This document shows, one piece after another, positions 833 through 15,000 of a DNA stretch of 64,000 nucleotides. The notes under the pieces were generated by a model, which had not been told where the DNA came from, ran no database searches, and saw only the letters and a list, made by a program, of their open reading frames with translations. The stretch is from contig CAZFTF010000002.1 in NCBI GenBank assembly GCA_964521495.1, positions 23,936-87,935 of the forward strand. Direction: 5' to 3'. Both the position numbers and the translations under genes were made by a program. The stretch's first letter is position 1. The number at the start of each line of letters is the position of its first letter. This DNA is from an uncultured Candidatus Peribacteria bacterium (lineage in GTDB: Bacteria; Patescibacteriota; Gracilibacteria; BD1-5; JAGOOR01).

Positions 833-2716
833 GTGAAATCCCTCTATTCTCATCTTCCGACTTGCCCTGGTGTCTATTTGATGAAAAACGCAAAAGGGAG
901 TACTATTTATATCTGAAAATCAAATAATCTCCGTGCACGAGTTCGATCATATTTTGTACCCAATGCCTCGCTGAATTTCGCGAAGAAAAAAATGATTAAG
1001 CTCATCGCGCAGATTGATTATATTGAGACAAAGAGCGACATCGAAGCATTGATGCTCGAGACCAATCTGATTAAAACCAATCAACCAAAATATAATGTCC
1101 TGATGAAAGATGGAAAAAATCTTTCCTATATCACGATTACTTCTGATCCTATTCCATGCCTGATAAAAACCCGATTTAAACCATCTGCTTGAATATCAAA
1201 AAAATCCCCCTGACACCAACATGATGTTCCGTCCCCCTTTGCAAAGGGGGCAGAATATTTTGGTCCGTACAGTCAGTATTTTGATGTGAGAAAATATGTT
1301 CGTTTTGTGCGCAAACTTTTCAGACTCTGAAATCATGAATCCTATCAAGAACTTCAGAAATCAAAGGGGATACCCTGTATCGATACACATCTAGGTCTCT
1401 GTCCAGGACACTGTACAGGCGATCCAGAAAAAATCTGAATATACCTGGAGAGATTGGAGCAAGCACGCGAGTTCCTCTGATGAAAACACGAAGCCATACT
1501 GGCAGACCTGCGGGACAAGATGCAACAGGCAGCCCAAAAACGAGAATTTGAACAGGCACAGGAATATAAAGGAATGATTGAACAAATTGAGGCAACTGGG
1601 AACCGTCAGATTGTGAGAGATGTAATTGAGGGTGATGCCTTGGTGGTGACAGGATTAGAAAAATATGGGCAGGTGTTTATCTCTTTTGTAGAAGTGAAAA
1701 ACAGTATGACAGTCGGAGTCTATGAATACCGAATCGAGAATCCACTTAATGAGAATGTGGAAGATCTTTTTGCTCACGCGGTACTTCAGTATATCGGTGA
1801 ACATAATATCCTCTCCGAGAAGAAACAAACCATTCTTTTTACCGACATTGCTCTCGAATCTTGCACCGAATTTGCTGAATTTATTGTCTCAGAAAAGGTA
1901 CTTGTGAAACATCCCGTCCGAGGCGAGAAAGTGCGACTCCTTGAATTCGCCCATACCAATCTCCTCAATTTCGCCTATCGGGAGACCATGGAGTGATTTA
2001 AAAAATCGACGCTGGGGAAAAAAGACATGGTTTCACTTTTGGATATACTTTTCTGAGAGAAAATTGCAGAGAAAAAAGAAGTTATCTTTGAGTGTTTCGA
2101 TATTTCCCATTCTCATGGTGAACATACGGTCGCGAGCCAGTCAGTACTCGTCAATGGAAAACCAGATCCAAAACGGTATAAAAAATATCGGATTAAAACC
2201 TTGAAAACTGGAGTAATTGATGACTTTGCTTCAATGGAGGAGATTCTTACACGACGAACACTGGCAGCTCTTCGTGGTGAAAATCCTTGGCCGGATATGA
2301 TAATTATCGACGGAGGAAAAGGGCAATTATCACACGCAGTTGAAGCCATCAAAAAGCACACAATGGATATCCCGAAAATTGTTTCTCTTGCAAAGCGAGA
2401 AGAAGAAGTTTTTCTTCCGTGACAATCTGAACCAATACTTCTTGAAAAAGGATCTTCTGAACTAATGCTCCTCCAGAAAATCAGAGATGAAGCTCACCGA
2501 TTTGCGATTAATTATAATCGTGCCTCACGAGAAAAATGATATACAAAAACCATTTTTGATGAACTTCCTGGTATCGGCCCAGTTGCACGCAAAAAAATTC
2601 TCTCTTATATTTCTCGTATTGAGGAACTTCAGACATGGTCACTCGAAAAAGCCGAGAAAGCGTTTGGAAATAAAACAGCCATTATACTCCAGGATCACGG
2701 TATCCTACAGGGCTAG
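833..2716 (+). CDS. uvrC: Excinuclease ABC subunit C
   Basis: Track fragments 992..1192, 1520..1996 and 2201..2422 share one frame and are joined through about 10 TGA codons. Motifs seen: GIY-YIG PGVYLMKNAKGSTIYI[G]KSNNLRARVRSYF, FGPY, CIDTHLGLCPGHC, FECFDISHSHGEHTVAS, and C-terminal HhH ELPGIGPVARKKIL. Stop is TAG at 2714-2716. The GTG start at 833 is a guess. Confidence 0.9.
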
Positions 2717-2746
2717 TATTTCCCAAGAAAAAACTATACTTCCTCT

Positions 2747-3220
2747 ATGACTAAACTTCCTCTTGAATTCTCCGCTCGCTGAATTATTTTTGATTCCCAG
2801 TGACGAGTATTGCTCGTAAAGCATAGAGCTACAAATCCATGGACCCTGCCAGGAGGACATGTAGAAAAAGAAGAAACATTTCAGGATGCCTGTATTCGCG
2901 AAGCGTATGAAGAACTCTGACTCAAAATCAGCCTTATTGCAGAAGAAGAACCATCAAAAGAAAAGGGGATTATACTACTTCCAAAACCAGAAAGAGTTCA
3001 GCTGATAGAGTATACCAATCATCGTGGTCCTGTAAGAAAGTATGAAGAATTCTTCCTTGCAGAAGTCGTCTCTGGAACTCTGAAAAAACAAGATGATGAA
3101 ATCTATGCGGTTGCCTGGAAGAGTCTCGAGGAAATAGAAAAAATCCCCAAAGGGGAAATCTTTGAGGGGATTCGTGAGATTATTCTCGAAGCGTTTGAAG
3201 ATGATGGTGACGAGGATTAG
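2747..3220 (+). CDS. NUDIX hydrolase
   Basis: Nudix box GGHVEKEETFQDACIREAYEEL[G]L, with the box glycine encoded by TGA at 2918-2920. There are three in-frame TGA codons. ATG at 2747, TAG at 3218-3220. Confidence 0.85.
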
Positions 3221-3224
3221 ATTC

Positions 3225-3839
3225 TTATTCCTCCGATCTTGCCATCATGGCACGATATCCTTTATCACAACCATCGGGATAGGGTCTATTCCACAAATTT
3301 TTGAGCACATTACCTTCCCTGCACAAGGCGGGGGCATTATCTGCACCAAATAAGGTTATAACACGCTCATGAGCTTTTTCTCTGACTGGTATGATACCCA
3401 CAGCCTCAGTCAGCGTGGCTTCGTCATCTTCAGGGTTTTGATCATATGCGGCCGCAAACTGCTCCAACAGCCCGCTTACTGCTTCGAGTCGCTTGCCGGG
3501 CACGGTGGGCGGACAGGGAGGCGTCGGCCCCATGCCGTCCCATAGCCCTATATCCCGGAGCGGACGGATGTAGTATGGCAGAATCAACTCTTCATGCCGC
3601 TGGTCTGTATCGGGTGAAAAGGCTTCTTTCATCGCAAGGCGGAGCAGAAGGAGGTTCACGAGATGCTCCGCGCTATTTCTGGGATCGGGCCCGGTCTTGA
3701 GTACCGCAACGGTGCGTCCGATTTCTCTTGAAAGCTGTTTGGTGTTGATCTGCATGTCAAATCGAAGCGTGTCCACAACGTCCTCCCATGTGCAGGCGGG
3801 TTGCTGTTCAGTATCTTCATTCAGTCTATTGTCCACCAT
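3225..3839 (-). CDS. Orphan hypothetical protein, GC-rich, no UGA codons (204 aa)
   Basis: Uninterrupted 204-aa ORF in the track. The central part is about 60-75% G+C by hand counts over 3441-3540, against about 35-40% for neighbouring sequence. All 12 Gly codons are GGN. No family recognised. Confidence 0.6.
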   Translation of the reverse strand: MVDNRLNEDTEQQPACTWEDVVDTLRFDMQINTKQLSREIGRTVAVLKTGPDPRNSAEHLVNLLLLRLAMKEAFSPDTDQRHEELILPYYIRPLRDIGLWDGMGPTPPCPPTVPGKRLEAVSGLLEQFAAAYDQNPEDDEATLTEAVGIIPVREKAHERVITLFGADNAPALCREGNVLKNLWNRPYPDGCDKGYRAMMARSEE

Positions 3840-3859
3840 ATAGTTTTTATTCGTCTATT

Positions 3860-3887
3860 AATATAATAATCTCTCTATCTTTGTCAA
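3860..3887 (-). promoter_or_regulatory. Putative sigma70-type promoter for the GC-rich orphan gene
   Basis: The minus strand reads TTGACA-16 nt-TATATT and ends about 20 nt upstream of the ATG at 3839. It lies in an AT-rich spacer between this gene and the nrdG stop. Confidence 0.4.
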
Positions 3888-3891
3888 AAAT

Positions 3892-4593
3892 CTACACCCT
3901 CACTCCACATTTCTCTACATACGGTTCCATGATTTTTTGGAGTTCTGTGAGTTCTTTTTCTGTCCAGCTCATTCATTGAAAATTTGGATCGAGCGTATTG
4001 CCTGGGCGATAATTTTGAAGGTAGTAATTCTTTGCTCACTGAATCGTTTCACCAATTTTTTTTATATCTTCTTCGGAGTGAACCCCTTTGATAACCGTGG
4101 TACGAAACTCGTAATCAGGGAGCCGAGTTTTTATAAGCTCAATACTTCTTTTAAAGAGATTGATATCAATTTCTACGCCACTTACCATCCGATATTGCTC
4201 AAGAGGATATTTGATATCCATAGCCACATAGTCGAGGAGATTTTCATCCATCAGATGTTCCAGCATAGCAGGATTACTCCCATTGGTATCGAGCTTTACG
4301 AGAAAGCCTGCTGCTTTTATCTTTCGACAAAAATCTGGTAAATCACTATGAATAGTTGGTTCACCGCCGCATATGACGACGCCATCGAGAAATCCAACTC
4401 TTGTTTTCAAGAACCGGAAAAACACTTCTTCACTGATACAGTCATGGCAAATCTTCTTTATTTTTTCTGGAACAACAAACTCGCTATTATGACAATATCA
4501 GCAACGCATATTGCATCCCATCGTAAAAACAATCGTAGCTACTTTGCCAGGATAATCGAGAAGCGTAGATTTCTTTATTCCGGAAAGAAGCAT
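3892..4593 (-). CDS. nrdG: Anaerobic ribonucleotide reductase activating protein (radical SAM)
   Basis: N-terminus MLLSGIKKSTLLDYPGKVATIVFTMGCNMRC[G]YCHN carries the CxxxCxxC radical-SAM motif, with TGA at 4498-4500. Track ORF 4036..4425 contains GGEPT. The C-terminus is extended through two TGA codons to TAG at 3892-3894. The gene lies immediately downstream of nrdD. Confidence 0.85.
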
Positions 4594-4616
4594 AGAGGAT
4601 TTTAATTATATTATGG

Positions 4617-4811
4617 CTACACTTTGTACTTTTGTTGCCAAAAGTACCAAAAGCATTTAGGACAGCAAAACTCGCTATAATCTGAATTCATCACTTGACT
4701 CAATTCATCCCGCTCAAACAGTTGCTGTCCTAAAAACCCTTTTCTGTTCGTGGTAAATTTTATTAAACGAATAAAACAAACTAAACTCATTAGACCAAAT
4801 AAACTTAGCAT
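4617..4811 (-). CDS. Small hypothetical protein (64 aa) inside the nrd operon
   Basis: The ATG directly abuts the stop of the 4812..5009 ORF and the gene ends 23 nt before nrdG. It has a hydrophobic N-terminus and a CCPKC motif. It could be spurious. Confidence 0.3.
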   Translation of the reverse strand: MLSLFGLMSLVCFIRLIKFTTNRKGFLGQQLFERDELSQVMNSDYSEFCCPKCFWYFWQQKYKV

Positions 4812-5009
4812 CTATACTGCTCCGTACTGAGCCATAAAGCAAGAGTTGTCACTCTTTGTCTCATCAAAGTAGGTGCGAGTATAAAACTCTGATTTTTTCC
4901 CATTGTTAAATTGGCTTACCGGTCGGTAATATCCCATAACACGAGTATAGATTTCACATTTTGTGCGCTCAACAGTGTTGCCATTGTTATCAATAAAGAA
5001 TGCAGACAT
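4812..5009 (-). CDS. Free-standing NrdD C-terminal glycyl-radical module (65 aa)
   Basis: Contains EIYTRVMGYYRPVSQFNNGKKSEFYTRTYF, the hallmark RVxGY glycyl-radical loop and following NxGKxxE motif of class III RNR C-termini. It has its own ATG, 49 nt after the TAA of the main nrdD ORF and in a different frame. Confidence 0.8.
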   Translation of the reverse strand: MSAFFIDNNGNTVERTKCEIYTRVMGYYRPVSQFNNGKKSEFYTRTYFDETKSDNSCFMAQYGAV

Positions 5010-5058: not shown

Positions 5059-7287
5059 TTATTCTACTGGAGCACAGCATTCACAGGCGTGAGTTTTTTC
5101 GAGTTCATGTATTTTATTTTCATCAGCAGTATAAATTTGTCGATATTCGAGATCAAATTTTTGTCCTGTGTATCCGATTTCTGCATCACATTTTGGACAG
5201 TAATCATGTTCTCCGTTGACGTACCCGTGTTTTGGACAGATAGAAAATGTCGGAGTGACAGTGATATAAGGAAGTTGGTAATTTGAGAGAGCTTTCTTGA
5301 TGAGATTTTTACAAGCCTCTGCATCACTCATTCTTTCCCCCATATAGAGATGAAGTACTGTTCCGCCTGTATATTTGCATTGAAGCTCATTTTGGTATTC
5401 GAGTGCCTCAAAGGCATCATCAGTGAAATTGACAGGAAGTTGAGTAGAGTTTGTGTAGTACGGATTATCTGGAGTTCCTGATTGGATGATATTTGGAAGT
5501 TGTTTCTGGTCTTCTTTTGCAAAGCGGTAGGTTGTCCCTTCCGCAGGTGTTGCTTCGAGATTGTACATATTACCAGTTTCTTCCTGGTACGCCTTGAGAG
5601 TATCTCGCATAAATTCGAGAATCTCAGTAGCAAATGCCTTGCCCCAATCAGTGGAGATATCTTCTTTGCCGTCTGTGAAATTCATAATAGCTTCATTCAT
5701 ACCATTGAGACCAATAGTGGAGAAATGATTTCTAAATGATCTCAGATAACGATACGTGTAAGGATAGAGACCTTTTTCGAGCCATTCACCGAGGACTTTT
5801 CGTTTGATTTCAAGAGAAGATTTCGCGAGGTTCATCAGATGAAGAATTTGTTCCTTAAATGCTTCCTTGTCGCTTTTTTTGATATATCCGATACGTGCGA
5901 GATTGAGTGTGACGACCCCGATAGAACCCGTCATTTCCGCTGAACCAAAGAGACCATTTCCTCGCTTCAGGAGCTCTCGGAGGTCGAGCTGGAGACGGCA
6001 ACACATAGAGCGGACAGCGCCAGGCTTGTAAGCCTCTTTATTCTCTACTGTGACCATATTTCAATTCTCATCTTTGACTCGTTTGTACTGAGACCCGATA
6101 AAATTTTGGAAATAAGGAAGACCATATTTTGCTGTAACATCGAAAATACGGAGTGTCTCAGGAGAATCCCATGGGAAATCTTCTGTGATATTGTACGTTG
6201 GGATAGGAAATGTGAAGACACGGCCTTTGCTATCACCTGCTGCATAGACTTCGAGAAGTGCCTTATTGATAATAGCGCGTTCTTTATTGAGTTCACCAAA
6301 TTTTTTCACATATTCACCTTTTTCATATCCACCGAGATGGAGACCCTTTTCAGCGAGATCTTCCGGACAGGTCCAGTCGAGGGTGATATTTGTAAACGGT
6401 GTTTGTGTTCCCCAACGAGATGGGACATTGAGACCGAAAACAAAATTTTGCATCTGTTGATAGACGTATGAATACGTCTTCTCTTCGATATATTTCTCTT
6501 TTGCTTCTTCGTTTTCAAACGCCATTCCATATTCTGCGATATCGCGTCGGAGTTCTAGTTCGTGTTTGTGAACGTATGGAGAGAGGTAGGTGTCAAATGA
6601 TGAGAATGCTTGTGCGCCAGCCCATTCATTTTGGAGAGTTCCGAGAAAGTTGATCATCTGATTGACTGCTGCCTGGAGATTTCGTGGCGGTGCTGACTCG
6701 ATACGATTTGGCATACCATTGAAACCTTCTTCGAGAAGTTGTCGGAGACTCCAACCAGCACAATATCCAGAGAACATATCGAGATCATGAATATGGTAGT
6801 CACCATTTCGGTGTGCATTTCCAACCTCTGAAGGGTAGATATGAGAGAGCCAGTAGTTGGCTGTGATTTTTCCAGAAGTATTGAGGAGCATGCCTCCGAG
6901 TGAATAACCAGAATTTGCATTCGCATTGACTCTCCAGTCAGAACGATTGAGGTATTCCTCCATTGTTTTCCCAACTTCGACAACAACCAATCGGTCAGTA
7001 CGAGTCTCTGCACGTTTCTCACGGTAGAGGATAAAGGCCTTTGCTACCGCATCATGTCCATGCTTGATAAGAATTTCCTCCACAGCATCTTGTATCATCT
7101 CGACATTGGGTAAATCCTTACCAGCATGTTCCATCGCTCGTGCGATGACTTCATCAGCGAGAGCATGAACCCGGGAGAAGTCTTCTCCCCCAACGGCCTC
7201 GATAGCTTTTTGTATGGCATGTTCGATTTTATGTCTGTTGAAGGTAACAATGGCGCCATTGCGCTTGCGGATCTTGTAAAGTGCCAT
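5059..7287 (-). CDS. nrdD: Anaerobic ribonucleoside-triphosphate reductase (class III), main body without the glycyl-radical loop
   Basis: Track ORFs 6061..7326 and 5059..6057 are joined by one TGA at 6058-6060. Features: N-terminal ATP-cone (MALYKIRKRNGAIVTFNRHKIEHAIQKA), SMCCRLQLDL, TGSIGVVTLNLARIGY, and Zn-site ICPKHGYVNGEHDYCPKC. The start is set at ATG 7285-7287 (MALYKIRKRNG) rather than 7326, because NrdR-box-like sites overlap the longer form. Confidence 0.9.
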
Positions 7288-7307
7288 AAAAGTGAAATTA
7301 GAAAAAT

Positions 7308-7355
7308 TAACTATATATTGTGCCAAAAATTTAGCGCAGACACAATATGTAGTTT
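7308..7355 (-). promoter_or_regulatory. Two tandem NrdR-box-like operators upstream of nrdD
   Basis: taactatatattgtgc (7308-7323) matches the NrdR consensus acaCwAtATaTwGtgt at 13/16 positions and acacaatatgtagttt (7340-7355) at 14/16. Centre-to-centre spacing is 32 bp, the usual tandem arrangement. Confidence 0.5.
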
Positions 7356-7567
7356 TTTCGGAAATGCAAAAAGTTATAAAAGTATCAATATTACTTCTTC
7401 AAAAATGTGTGTCGTGATATAAAAATGTGTTCACTTTTTTGCCATATTGAAATGGATTTCTCGGGAAACCTCCCCCAAAAATTGATCCAGCTTGCCAAAA
7501 TTAATTTTTATTTCGGAGCTATCTTTTCAAAGAATTTTGCTAGGATTTTGGAATTTCTCGATATACT

Positions 7568-12062: not shown

Positions 12063-15000
12063 ATGAAGTGGAATATGAAAAAACTTGTCCTCATTTTAGC
12101 TCTTATTGTCTGATACTCTTCAGTATTTATGACGCCGTTGTATGCGGCAAGAGAAAAGATAGAATTTAATAATGGTGGATGTAGCTGAATGAACTGTTTT
12201 TTAAAAGGAGTTCAAGATGCTGGAGATAAGTTAAAAATAACTGGAGCTGTAACAGGTGTAGGTATTTCGGATGCTATTCAAGATTTCATCATTTATCTTC
12301 TAGGTTTTATATCCCTCATAGCACTTATTTATATCATGTATGCTGGTGCACAAATGCTTCTAAAACCTGCTGATGAGGAATCAGCAGCGAAAACGAAAAA
12401 AATTATCATTGGTGTTATTTCTGGTATTGTGGTTATATGGTTTGCATGGTGGATGGTGAGTACTATTTTCTTTATTTTAGGGACGGGAAACAATAAGATT
12501 TCATTTATTCCTCAAGCTATTGCAGAAACGCAAATAAGAAAAGTGGATTTTACGACATACAGTAACAGAATCGAAGCACTTAAAACAAAAATCGATGCAG
12601 AGTATAGCCCTGAAGTTATGAGTGAGCTCACTATTTTGATAGATGGAGCGTATGACCATATGCCGGATAGGGGTGATCTCTACCTCAATAAACAGCTCTA
12701 TGATACTGTTAAAAAAGCTATCGCTGACTATAACCTTCACAGAGAAATTATTGATAGATGAATTCTGCAAACAGCACTGCGTAATTTTATAGAATCAGCA
12801 GAGGTTTACATGATTAAATCTGAACCAGAGGCGACTCCACGTACTGGAGATGCCCCACTGTCTGTCACACTGGAAGCAAAAAAAACTATCGATGAGAGTG
12901 GCACTCTGGTACCAAATGATAACTATGTATGGTGGCTGAGAACAGAATGAGGTGGAACACAAATCATCGGAAAAGGTAATATTGTAAATTATACTTTTGA
13001 AACTTCTGGAACATATATGGTATTTCTTACGGTGAACTCCGCGAGTAAAAATAGTCGATGATTTGCTGATGTTATCAATTTTGAAGAAAGCGTCGTATTG
13101 GAAATCGGACAACCCAAGGTTAAATTTATGGTCAAGATAAATGATCAGTTGGTCAATCGGACGTTTAAGATATCTACAAAGGAAGCACTTAAGCCAATAC
13201 GGATTGATGCATCTGAGACACGATTTGCTTCGGGGTATACTACAAAGAATACAGAGTGGGATTTTGATAATGGAAATACTGACTCAAACGAAGGAGATCC
13301 TCAATTTGAAACACAGATGTATGAGCCTGGGGACTATGTTATACAGCTCAAATTGACTCGAAATGATGATGAAGAATTTACCTACCCAATCTTCTTAAAA
13401 ATTGGTGATCCTCTTGCGTCTATATCTACTACAACATGATCACCAAATAAATGAGAGAAAACTACTTTTCAAGCAAAAAAAACATCGAACGAAAATGATG
13501 TCCAATATCTTTGGGAGGTAAAAAAACAGGGGAGTGATGCTATCCTATATACTTCATCAGGTACTCGTTTAGAATATGTTTTCTGAGATACGGGGAAGTT
13601 TTTTGTCACACTGACCTCTATTAAATGAGATGTTCGAGATAAAGATACGATGGAAGTGAATGTGGAGTCACGACCACCAAATGTTCAATTTACAAGTGAG
13701 GTGGTATCTTCTGAGTTACCAAATGTTTTCTTGTTTGATGGCAGTAACTCTTTTGACCCTGATTATCCTGATAATCAAAAATTACGATTTGAGTGGTTTG
13801 TAAATGATACTGCTGTACAGTTAGCAGAAACAAATGAAAGAAATAGTCGTTGAAAATATACTTTTCCCGAAACAGGAATATATCGTGTATTGCTGAGAGT
13901 CACAGATGAGGAGTGAAAAACAAAAGAAGCACGCCATGAGGTAAGGGTTACCAGTATTTTGTCAGTTCAGCTTAACATGCGACCTGCAGTAGTCAAACGA
14001 TGACAGAAAGCGATATTAACTGTGACGGCTCCACGCGCAAAGACGTATGAATGGAAGATGGGAAACAATGAAGTAATTCGTACCGAAACAAATCGGTTTG
14101 TGACGAGCTTCTCTGTCTCATGAGTTATTCCGGTATCAGTCACAGTAACAGACGTAGATGGGGAGAGTAATACTGCCACAGAAAAAATTTATGTCATGGA
14201 AGATGAGCAACCATTTTCAATACTTGACCTCAAGAGCGAGTCTATACTTACCTTTTCTCAAAAGAGTGTCTGTAGTGGAGAAGAGGCTATCACATTTGAT
14301 CGGGCAAATTCAATTTCCTTTTCTGCTGATAGAAGTGTGAATATGGATGGTCGGAATAATGACCTTACCTATTTTTGGAAAATAGGTCTCAATAAGACAT
14401 CTACACAGAAAAATCTTTCCTATACATTTGATGAATTAGGTTGCGAAGAGATTAGTTTGACAGTTTCTGATAAAGTTACTGGCGCTTCCCATACAACAAA
14501 AACTTGGGTAAAGATCGTCAATCTAGCACCTATTTTTAATGATATTCAAGTCGTAGTTGAAAATCTGGATATGGATCCTATGCATGTCGATCTCAAGATT
14601 CTTGGCGCCAAAGATCCTGATGGACTTATTCGTTCCTATACTTGGTATTACTACACTGATCGAGATGAACAGCCTCAATGATTTCGTATTACACGATTAC
14701 CAGAGGCAAATTTTATCTTGCCAAAAATTACCGGGCGGTATTATTTCGCTGTCATGATGGAGGATTCAAATGGTCTTAAAATCAACACAAAAGAAGCTTC
14801 AGAGGTGCCTTTCTCGACGCCAGATTTATATGTAAATACGAATCTCTCGACACCAATTATTGAAAATTTCAAAGCTGATAATGCGGAAGTGAAATTTTGA
14901 GATATAACTGAGCTTTCTCTCGACGTGAAAACACCAGTTGCGAGCGATGTATGAGATAAGTCAGAATATCGATGGGATGTTGACGGGGATGGTTTTTATG

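Follow-up and report, generated by a model that had tools for sequence, protein, structure and literature searches.

The 64,000-nt stretch of DNA analysed here (the window) comes from an uncultured Candidatus Peribacteria bacterium that reads UGA as glycine. On its minus strand, between a Nudix hydrolase gene and the radical-SAM activase gene nrdG, it carries an open reading frame (ORF) for a 204-aa protein that we call P0001. We conclude that this gene probably represents a single-gene insertion of ~669 nt that entered the Nudix/nrdG gap after the split from the nearest sampled relative, most likely by horizontal transfer from a source of higher G+C content. The segment is absent from the orthologous site in close relatives, deviates in composition from the recipient (in codons 1-130 only), and is physically continuous with the host chromosome in contigs of three sequencing runs (X1, X2, and X3) at the depth of its flanks. 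An earlier prediction, made from the sequence alone (the original prediction), had proposed a recent horizontal acquisition. Transfer agrees with the absence in relatives and the atypical composition; the simple scenario of a single import is only partly supported, given a paralogue in the same genome (P0002) and the native-like codons 131-204.

The insertion site in related genomes

The genome to which the window belongs (G000) comprises 1.04 Mb in 37 contigs with a G+C content of 39.7%, an estimated completeness of 95.6%, and an estimated contamination of 1.65%. The window was placed on its 110-kb contig C2, and the reading frames of the window stay open only with TGA as a sense codon, as in genetic code 25 (UGA = Gly). 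The P0001 ORF lies alone between the stop codons of the Nudix gene (3218-3220) and nrdG (3892-3894), as the original prediction had described; its start is 52 nt beyond the nrdG stop and its end is 4 nt short of the Nudix stop.

A DNA search of the genus with a 2.4-kb query matched some part of the query in 18/18 other genomes, and query positions 922-1588, i.e., the insert, were unmatched throughout. The Nudix-nrdG arrangement was present only in two syntenic relatives, G005 and G003. In G005, where the flanks are 84-85% identical, the Nudix stop TAA is followed by AA and then by CTA, the nrdG stop, giving a gap of 2 nt; the alignment joins window position ~3219 to ~3888. In G003 (81% identical), the Nudix and nrdG stops are 199 nt apart and the filler is an unrelated repeat element. 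Five other members of the genus carry different genes 3' of nrdG. Because relatives show differing states there, the site 3' of nrdG can be regarded as a repeated landing place. A DNA-level search detected no second copy of the insert or similar stretch in its own genome, and the insert termini bear no repeats beyond a 9-nt imperfect inverted pair. The 671-nt segment 3221-3891 is specific to the G000 lineage, in keeping with the comparison of sister genomes that the original prediction had proposed.

The filler in G003 is itself a GC-rich palindromic element resembling a miniature inverted-repeat transposable element (L024 2206-2404; G003:C1:354455-354653), with the arms GCCCCCTTGATAAAGGGGG / CCCCCTTTATCAAGGGGGC. 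Another 17 matches to it occur in G003, and G000, G005, G014, and G009 have none.

Composition, expression signals, and protein family

The P0001 ORF has a G+C content of 52.9% compared to 40.0 ± 3.7%, the highest of 859 ORFs of at least 100 aa (z 3.5; the next reaches 50.0%), and this anomaly is well beyond chance. In a sliding-window plot, as suggested with the original prediction, the 300-nt window from C2:27351 (~window position 3416) has 59% G+C, the highest of 20,609 genome windows (mean 39.7%, standard deviation 4.5). A two-state maximum-likelihood fit delimits a GC-rich segment of 410 nt at 3397-3806, with 57.8% G+C compared to 39.6% outside. Recounting recovered the earlier values of 36/60 G+C at 3441-3500 and 21/60 at the native reference line 12301-12360; the sole miscount concerned the 60 nt that follow the former (3501-3560), which hold 42/60 rather than 45/60. 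Most other GC-rich windows of the genome are accounted for by a single ORF of 5,392 aa at C10:1972-18150(-) in G000, which has 47% G+C and contains 128 TGA codons.

Both the amino acids and the synonymous codons of P0001 contribute to its anomaly. The G+C content predicted from its amino acids and native codon preferences is 46.5% (z 2.6; 9/843 native ORFs are as high), and synonymous codons add a further 6.4 points (z 2.3; again 9/843 native ORFs). The synonymous-codon likelihood of the ORF is low (z -2.9; 19th lowest among 606). The protein is enriched in Pro, Arg, Asp, Glu, and Ala and depleted in Ser, Phe, Ile, and Lys, with 30% GARP residues (21.5% in native proteins) and 17% FIKNY residues (28% in native proteins); such a bias typically marks proteins encoded by GC-richer genomes. 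Only codons 1-130 show the synonymous excess, with G+C at third codon positions (GC3) at 0.63 compared to an expected 0.36. The first 13 codons have 38.5% G+C and the 52-nt promoter region 19%; both lie outside the family core, since homology to the metagenomic relative P0003 spans residues 15-185. By the same measure, the GC-rich block begins at the start of homology and stops ~40 codons before its end. All glycines of P0001 use GGN codons (12/12) and none uses TGA, as noted earlier. The claimed native frequency of one UGA per 50-100 codons was also recovered: TGA makes up 1.4% of native codons (~1 per 70) and encodes 19% of native glycines.

The putative near-consensus promoter of the original prediction, TTGACA-16 nt-TATATT at 3887-3860(-), matches the sigma-70 consensus at 11/12 positions and is the sole match above 9/12 within 2600-4800. 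The end of its -10 element is 20 nt from the ATG, with no Shine-Dalgarno (SD) sequence between them, so the P0001 leader would be very short. This promoter is native in style, i.e., AT-rich, without an SD sequence, and with T at -1. Among 606 native ORFs of at least 200 aa, SD-like words occur at -18 to -4 in 6% compared to 11% in a control window, T is found at -1 in 70%, and the upstream region is poor in G; these figures are rough, as the first ATG was used as the start. The native genes of this genome appear to lack SD sequences. Since the inserted segment itself contains the promoter, which is missing in G005, no resident promoter was captured. Of the local transcriptional control proposed earlier, the native-style signals hold up and the capture of a resident promoter does not.

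No terminator was detected between nrdG and the P0001 ORF, and the first minus-strand hairpin of terminator type is at 3167-3145. It is likely the shared terminator of nrdG and the P0001 gene. The hairpin also occurs in G005 and G003, where it is coding too, so that its conservation provides no independent evidence. We infer from this arrangement that the P0001 gene sits between nrdG and the nrdG terminator and would be transcribed from its own promoter as well as by read-through. Among 13 sequencing runs retrieved, none is recorded as RNA, which counts neither for nor against expression.

The ORF ends in TAA, and its homologues are in frame. An exhaustive HMMER search of 1.84 billion representatives, a library that derives from ~15 billion predicted proteins, returned three metagenomic relatives, i.e., P0003, P0004, and P0005 (E 3.6e-18, 2.4e-12, and 3.0e-11). 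The contigs that encode them measure 7,014 nt (P0003), 7,912 nt (P0004), and 1,119 and 2,699 nt (P0005/P0006). P0001 aligns with its relatives over near full length, with 17 invariant columns. These outside homologues are 30-36% identical to P0001 (34% between residues 15-185 of P0001 and 4-187 of P0003), compared to 24-30% for the in-genome paralogue. The family forms five 50%-identity clusters, one of them missing from an exact look-up, and shares the motifs TW-E-V--LR, LLLLRLA-KEAY-PD, PL(R/K/E)-(L/I/M)G-W, and FGPDNA-AL-(R/K)E. All five members are soluble proteins without a hydrophobic span; P0001 is acidic (pI 4.8), in contrast to the basic P0002 (pI 9.7). AlphaFold2 (AF2) with a 5-row alignment modelled P0001 as a helical bundle, with a mean pLDDT of 71-93 per 10-residue block over residues 11-140 and the C-terminal third unmodelled. 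The model of P0005 agrees with this fold.

The original prediction had recognised no protein family, and database searches gave the same result. None of the five members matched Pfam (E<=5) or any anti-phage defence family of PADLOC-DB (0 families at E<=1). NCBIfam gave two chance-level rows only (E 0.12-0.13), a sequence profile search of the PDB gave rows at E 0.46 only, and Foldseek against the PDB nothing better than E 1.0. Among 48,161 chains compared with VIA-align, a cyanophage pre-ejectosome chain ranked highest at Z 5.6, which is under the tool's bar for helical bundles. The family profile was found in 0/18 genus, 0/42 order, and 0/400 phylum genomes; GC-rich homologues are hence not universal in related genomes of the candidate phyla radiation (0/60 relatives, 0/400 phylum genomes); it was their universality that the original prediction had named as evidence against acquisition. 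A motif scan of one genome per species in 185,579 species, based on a 4-sequence alignment, gave 80 pattern stretches and 0 confirmed members, and scans of metagenome contigs likewise confirmed no family member. A word-index profile search brought up no sequence other than P0005, the paralogue, and the query. No longer or fused forms of the family were found, which is weak evidence by the tool's own rating. We found no paper on the family, although no search by name was made, as the family is nameless.

A language-model feature search gave P0001 leads of 0.81-0.86, under the 0.9 bar, and its ten listed rows were mostly HTH_3 clusters, a likeness to the Cro/C1-type (XRE) helix-turn-helix proteins (HTH_3, PF01381). 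We rejected this identity: the five members have 0 Pfam families at E<=5, AF2 gives residues 33-49 of P0001 as a single continuous helix, and the feature search with P0005 had no usable match. Our low-confidence guess is that P0001 is an accessory binding protein and not an enzyme of core metabolism. A role as an immunity or anti-defence factor, proposed on context alone, is rather unlikely.

The paralogue P0002 (229 aa) is encoded at C1:83876-84562 in G000 (L002 1327-2013) as a lone gene between dusB and zwf, which we take to be the G6PD gene. Its similarity to P0001 (24-30% identity) gives a pairwise E of 4e-7 across the N-terminal 100 residues. The gene has 38% G+C and a GC3 of 26%, and is flanked by spacers of 15-22% G+C. 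TGA is used for 8/15 of its glycine codons compared to 19% natively (binomial p = 0.0035); codons 2 and 3 are TGA, and one TGA position aligns with a glycine of P0005. GARP residues make up 26% of P0002, between the native 21.5% and the 29-31% of P0001, P0004, and P0005. At the corresponding site, the two flanking start codons of G005 are ~67 nt apart, and G003, G014, G009, and G002 encode an unrelated multi-pass membrane protein of 189-210 aa. A tree of the five sequences groups P0001 with P0003 (97/97) and P0002 with P0005 (94/95) on long branches. Apart from the two members in G000, which are not sisters, the family is represented by three clusters in the 1.84-billion library. Because these two members share one genome, repeated arrival in this lineage or a long association with it is indicated rather than one chance import.

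Origin of the segment

In the explanation that we favour, a segment of ~669 nt would have entered the 2-nt gap between the convergent Nudix and nrdG stops, and its insertion would postdate the split of this code-25 lineage from its nearest sampled relative. The segment would encode a soluble, acidic, all-helical protein of 204 aa from a very rare family that most likely arrived horizontally from a GC-richer genome. Transcription would use the near-consensus promoter of the segment, with a short SD-less leader, together with nrdDG read-through, and would stop at the hairpin in the Nudix 3' end that probably served nrdG beforehand. No recoding would be needed, because a standard-code gene has no in-frame TGA and, when ended by TAA, reads identically under code 25.

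Several observations weigh against this explanation. The polarity of the event, i.e., gain or loss, is read from three syntenic genomes only. The donor was not found: the closest relative of P0001 is just 36% identical, so that the homology search proposed earlier yielded three relatives and no donor lineage, and no DNA at least 90% alike covers the insert in four sequencing runs (X1, X2, X3, and X5), its own contigs apart. With regard to a high-GC donor, amino-acid composition drives half of the GC excess, and 22 ORFs among the other 858 of at least 100 aa, presumably genes of strong codon bias, surpass the whole-ORF GC3 of 0.54. With regard to a simple, recent import of the whole gene, codons 131-204 are native-like (GC3 of 0.38 compared to an expected 0.33); this mosaic could possibly reflect uneven decay, or else recombination with a family member of low G+C. 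The absence of UGA, which the original prediction took as a foreign mark, is real but carries little weight: the probability of finding no TGA among 12 glycine codons is 0.076, which is not significant alone, and 36/617 ORFs of at least 200 aa are TGA-free. Furthermore, the TGA-rich, low-GC P0002 indicates that the family also lives under code 25, and the tie of the family to this organism is therefore unexplained by a single high-GC transfer.

As a special case of horizontal import, the vector may have been a code-11-compatible phage or mobile element of Gracilibacteria carrying the gene as moron-like cargo, with both copies in G000 coming from mobile elements that target this lineage. A phage vector is conceivable, and this specific route is in our view quite unlikely. 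It would account for a lone, TGA-free gene with its own promoter, and for two divergent members of a very rare family in one genome, each a lone-gene insertion that groups with a foreign sequence and not with its counterpart (in a tree of five sequences with long branches). In PMC10746230, putative Gracilibacteria phages are described as largely code-11 compatible: coding density changed little between codes 25 and 11 for 34/38 putative phages >20 kb, and the code-11-compatible phages examined there were without in-frame TGA. Against such a vector, none of the five members matched a PHROG, tblastn at E<=1 returned 0 matches in 50,697 phage records (INPHARED) and 0 in 72,556 plasmids, pattern scans of the viral contigs of IMG/VR found no family member, and Foldseek against the viral folds of BFVD gave a best E of 0.11 and no match at E<=0.001. 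No integrase, transposase, or phage gene lies beside P0001 or P0002, and the 9-nt imperfect inverted pair is the only terminal repeat.

Somewhat less probable still is that the gene was ancestral to G000, G005, and G003 and was lost in two of them, its G+C content stemming from protein composition and selection rather than from a foreign origin. Such an old resident would fit the paralogue in the same genome, the native-like synonymous sites of the 3' third, and the native-style promoter and start context. It would also fit a 22/25-nt block at the ORF start that resembles the G003 filler at an equal distance from the nrdG stop; its local score of 27 was reached by 3/300 shuffles, and its global alignment score by 35/1,000. 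This block is probably due to chance, because the repeat in which it sits is scattered through G003 and missing from G000, and the idea of a remnant of the insert in G003 was dropped on this basis. Loss is also at odds with the clean 2-nt junction in G005, with the absence of the family from the genus, order, and phylum genomes surveyed, and with a GC3 of 0.63 across 130 codons, which would be expected to decay over the 15-19% divergence of the flanks.

The original prediction had named contamination or chimerism as its alternative, and this suspicion is natural where an unusual composition turns up in a metagenome-assembled genome whose estimated contamination is 1.65%. We aligned the Logan per-run contigs of four runs on 2500-4700, using contigs as opposed to raw read pairs. 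A 1,978-nt contig of X1 spans 2674-4651 without differences, its depth being 8.78 (adjoining piece, 7.9); in X2, a 1,143-nt contig covers 3163-4305 with 0 differences at a depth of 8.8 (flanking pieces, 10.5 and 6.8). Each of these bridges both insert junctions, and the depth of 8.8 compared to 6.8-10.5 in the flanks also answers, at the level of contigs, the coverage check suggested earlier. X1 and X2 may be source samples of the assembly, and X3 and X5 are thus the more independent witnesses: a 440-nt contig of X3 covers 2939-3378 and bridges the left junction, and X5, a run of a second study, contains the insert pieces 3231-3535 and 3667-3818 with 0 differences. The run contigs show no joints at the insert junctions and no loose end at 3220 or 3890 from the strain itself; the sole nearby loose end (3220, X5) belongs to a relative that is ~90% identical. 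No joint that skips the insert was seen in the four runs, although contigs drop rare variants and an empty-site allele may escape them. In the face of separate-sample contigs that bridge the junctions without differences at flank depth, a chimera or contaminant joined to the contig is highly improbable.

The contig of the ~90%-identical relative in X5 (it differs at 18 positions over 186 nt at the 3' end of Nudix) departs from the alignment exactly at 3220. Its sequence past the Nudix stop is unlike the insert, G005, or nrdG and represents a fourth state of the junction.

That the segment is no protein gene at all, i.e., a GC-rich structured RNA or a chance ORF of the kind that arises easily where only TAA and TAG stop translation, has next to no chance of being right: several long ORFs in other frames do overlap the GC-rich core, but protein homologues exist in the P0001 frame only, Rfam has no match in the insert at E<=10 or at gathering score, and the core folds no better than shuffled sequences (minus strand, z +1.39; plus strand, z +0.73).

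Gene neighbourhood, comparison with known systems, and implications

The features of the locus are given in Table 1. The neighbours of the P0001 gene are uvrC, Nudix, nrdG, and nrdD, and the minus-strand order is nrdD, a 65-aa nrdD tail ORF, nrdG, and the P0001 ORF.

Table 1. Coordinates of the inserted segment and surrounding features in the window.
Feature	Position	Strand	Description
Inserted segment	3221-3891	-	~669-671 nt: ORF, 4 nt past its stop, and 52 nt upstream; missing in G005
P0001 gene	3225-3839	-	204 aa, TGA-free, stop TAA; homologues P0003-P0005, AF2 models
GC-rich core	3397-3806	-	57.8% G+C, ~codons 12-147; maximum-likelihood segment; spans the confidently modelled helical domain
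Sigma-70-like promoter TTGACA-16-TATATT	3860-3887	-	Consensus match 11/12
Terminator-like hairpin and T-run	3145-3167	-	Within the Nudix 3' end, 58 nt beyond the ORF stop
nrdG, radical-SAM activase	3892-4593	-	Pfam; co-directional, directly upstream of insert
Nudix hydrolase gene	2747-3220	+	Pfam NUDIX; convergent with insert
nrdD	5059-7434	-	Pfam NRDD and ATP-cone
nrdD tail ORF	4812-5009	-	65 aa; Pfam NRDD positions 531-562

The nrdD gene is split. Its 791-aa ORF matches positions 2-528 of 562 of Pfam NRDD in addition to the ATP-cone, and the tail ORF, in a different frame past a ~50-nt CT-rich spacer, carries the glycyl-radical motif RVMGYY; since G005 has the same split, it is no assembly error. 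Between the tail ORF and nrdG, at ~4611-4696, lies a dispersed repeat of 50-90 nt that holds the hairpin GTACTTTTG-TTGC-CAAAAGTAC. Dozens of copies with 77-98% identity occur across all genus genomes, with at least 6 more in G000, and the contig depth at the repeat is 128-303 compared to 8.8 in the flanks. It has no Rfam match, and the window contains only one close copy of the hairpin.

We compared the P0001 locus with known kinds of single-gene units, and it most likely belongs with the horizontally acquired ORFan islets, which arise by a familiar kind of event. Like such islets, it differs in presence and absence between close relatives, is atypical in G+C content, codon use, and amino acids, belongs to no known family, and is placed in the intergenic gap of convergent genes. 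It differs from them in that the recipient uses code 25, the anomaly is limited to ~codons 12-147, neither a donor nor a mobility gene can be identified, and the genome holds a second, TGA-rich member of this rare family. Phage morons resemble it as single ORFs with their own promoter that sit between two genes and are unlike these in composition; in contrast, P0001 lies outside any prophage, among the neighbours named above, without a terminator of its own or a phage homologue in sequence or fold. Integron cassettes share the compact single-ORF format of ~0.7 kb, whereas the P0001 unit has a promoter, lacks an attC-like imperfect inverted repeat at its 3' end, and has no integrase or cassette array in its neighbourhood.

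A one-way genetic firewall is often said to surround bacteria that translate UGA as glycine: their genes are unreadable elsewhere, and standard-code genes that end in TAA or TAG are readable by them without change. The P0001 locus provides a clear case, with verified junctions, of a gene that probably came in from outside to a reduced genome of ~1 Mb, and the low-GC, TGA-rich P0002 is a built-in comparison for the naturalisation of foreign genes. An unlikely but informative extension is that the two genes represent two time-points in the domestication of standard-code genes by a UGA = Gly bacterium. P0001 would be the newcomer, TGA-free and with a GC-rich core, already behind a native-style SD-less promoter; P0002 would be an older immigrant, its third positions decayed to 26% G+C and 8/15 of its glycine codons now TGA. 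If this were true, the family would reach this lineage repeatedly, possibly by way of a code-11-compatible mobile element common to the lineage and its host or prey, and the pair would gauge the speed at which code-specific codons invade an acquired gene.

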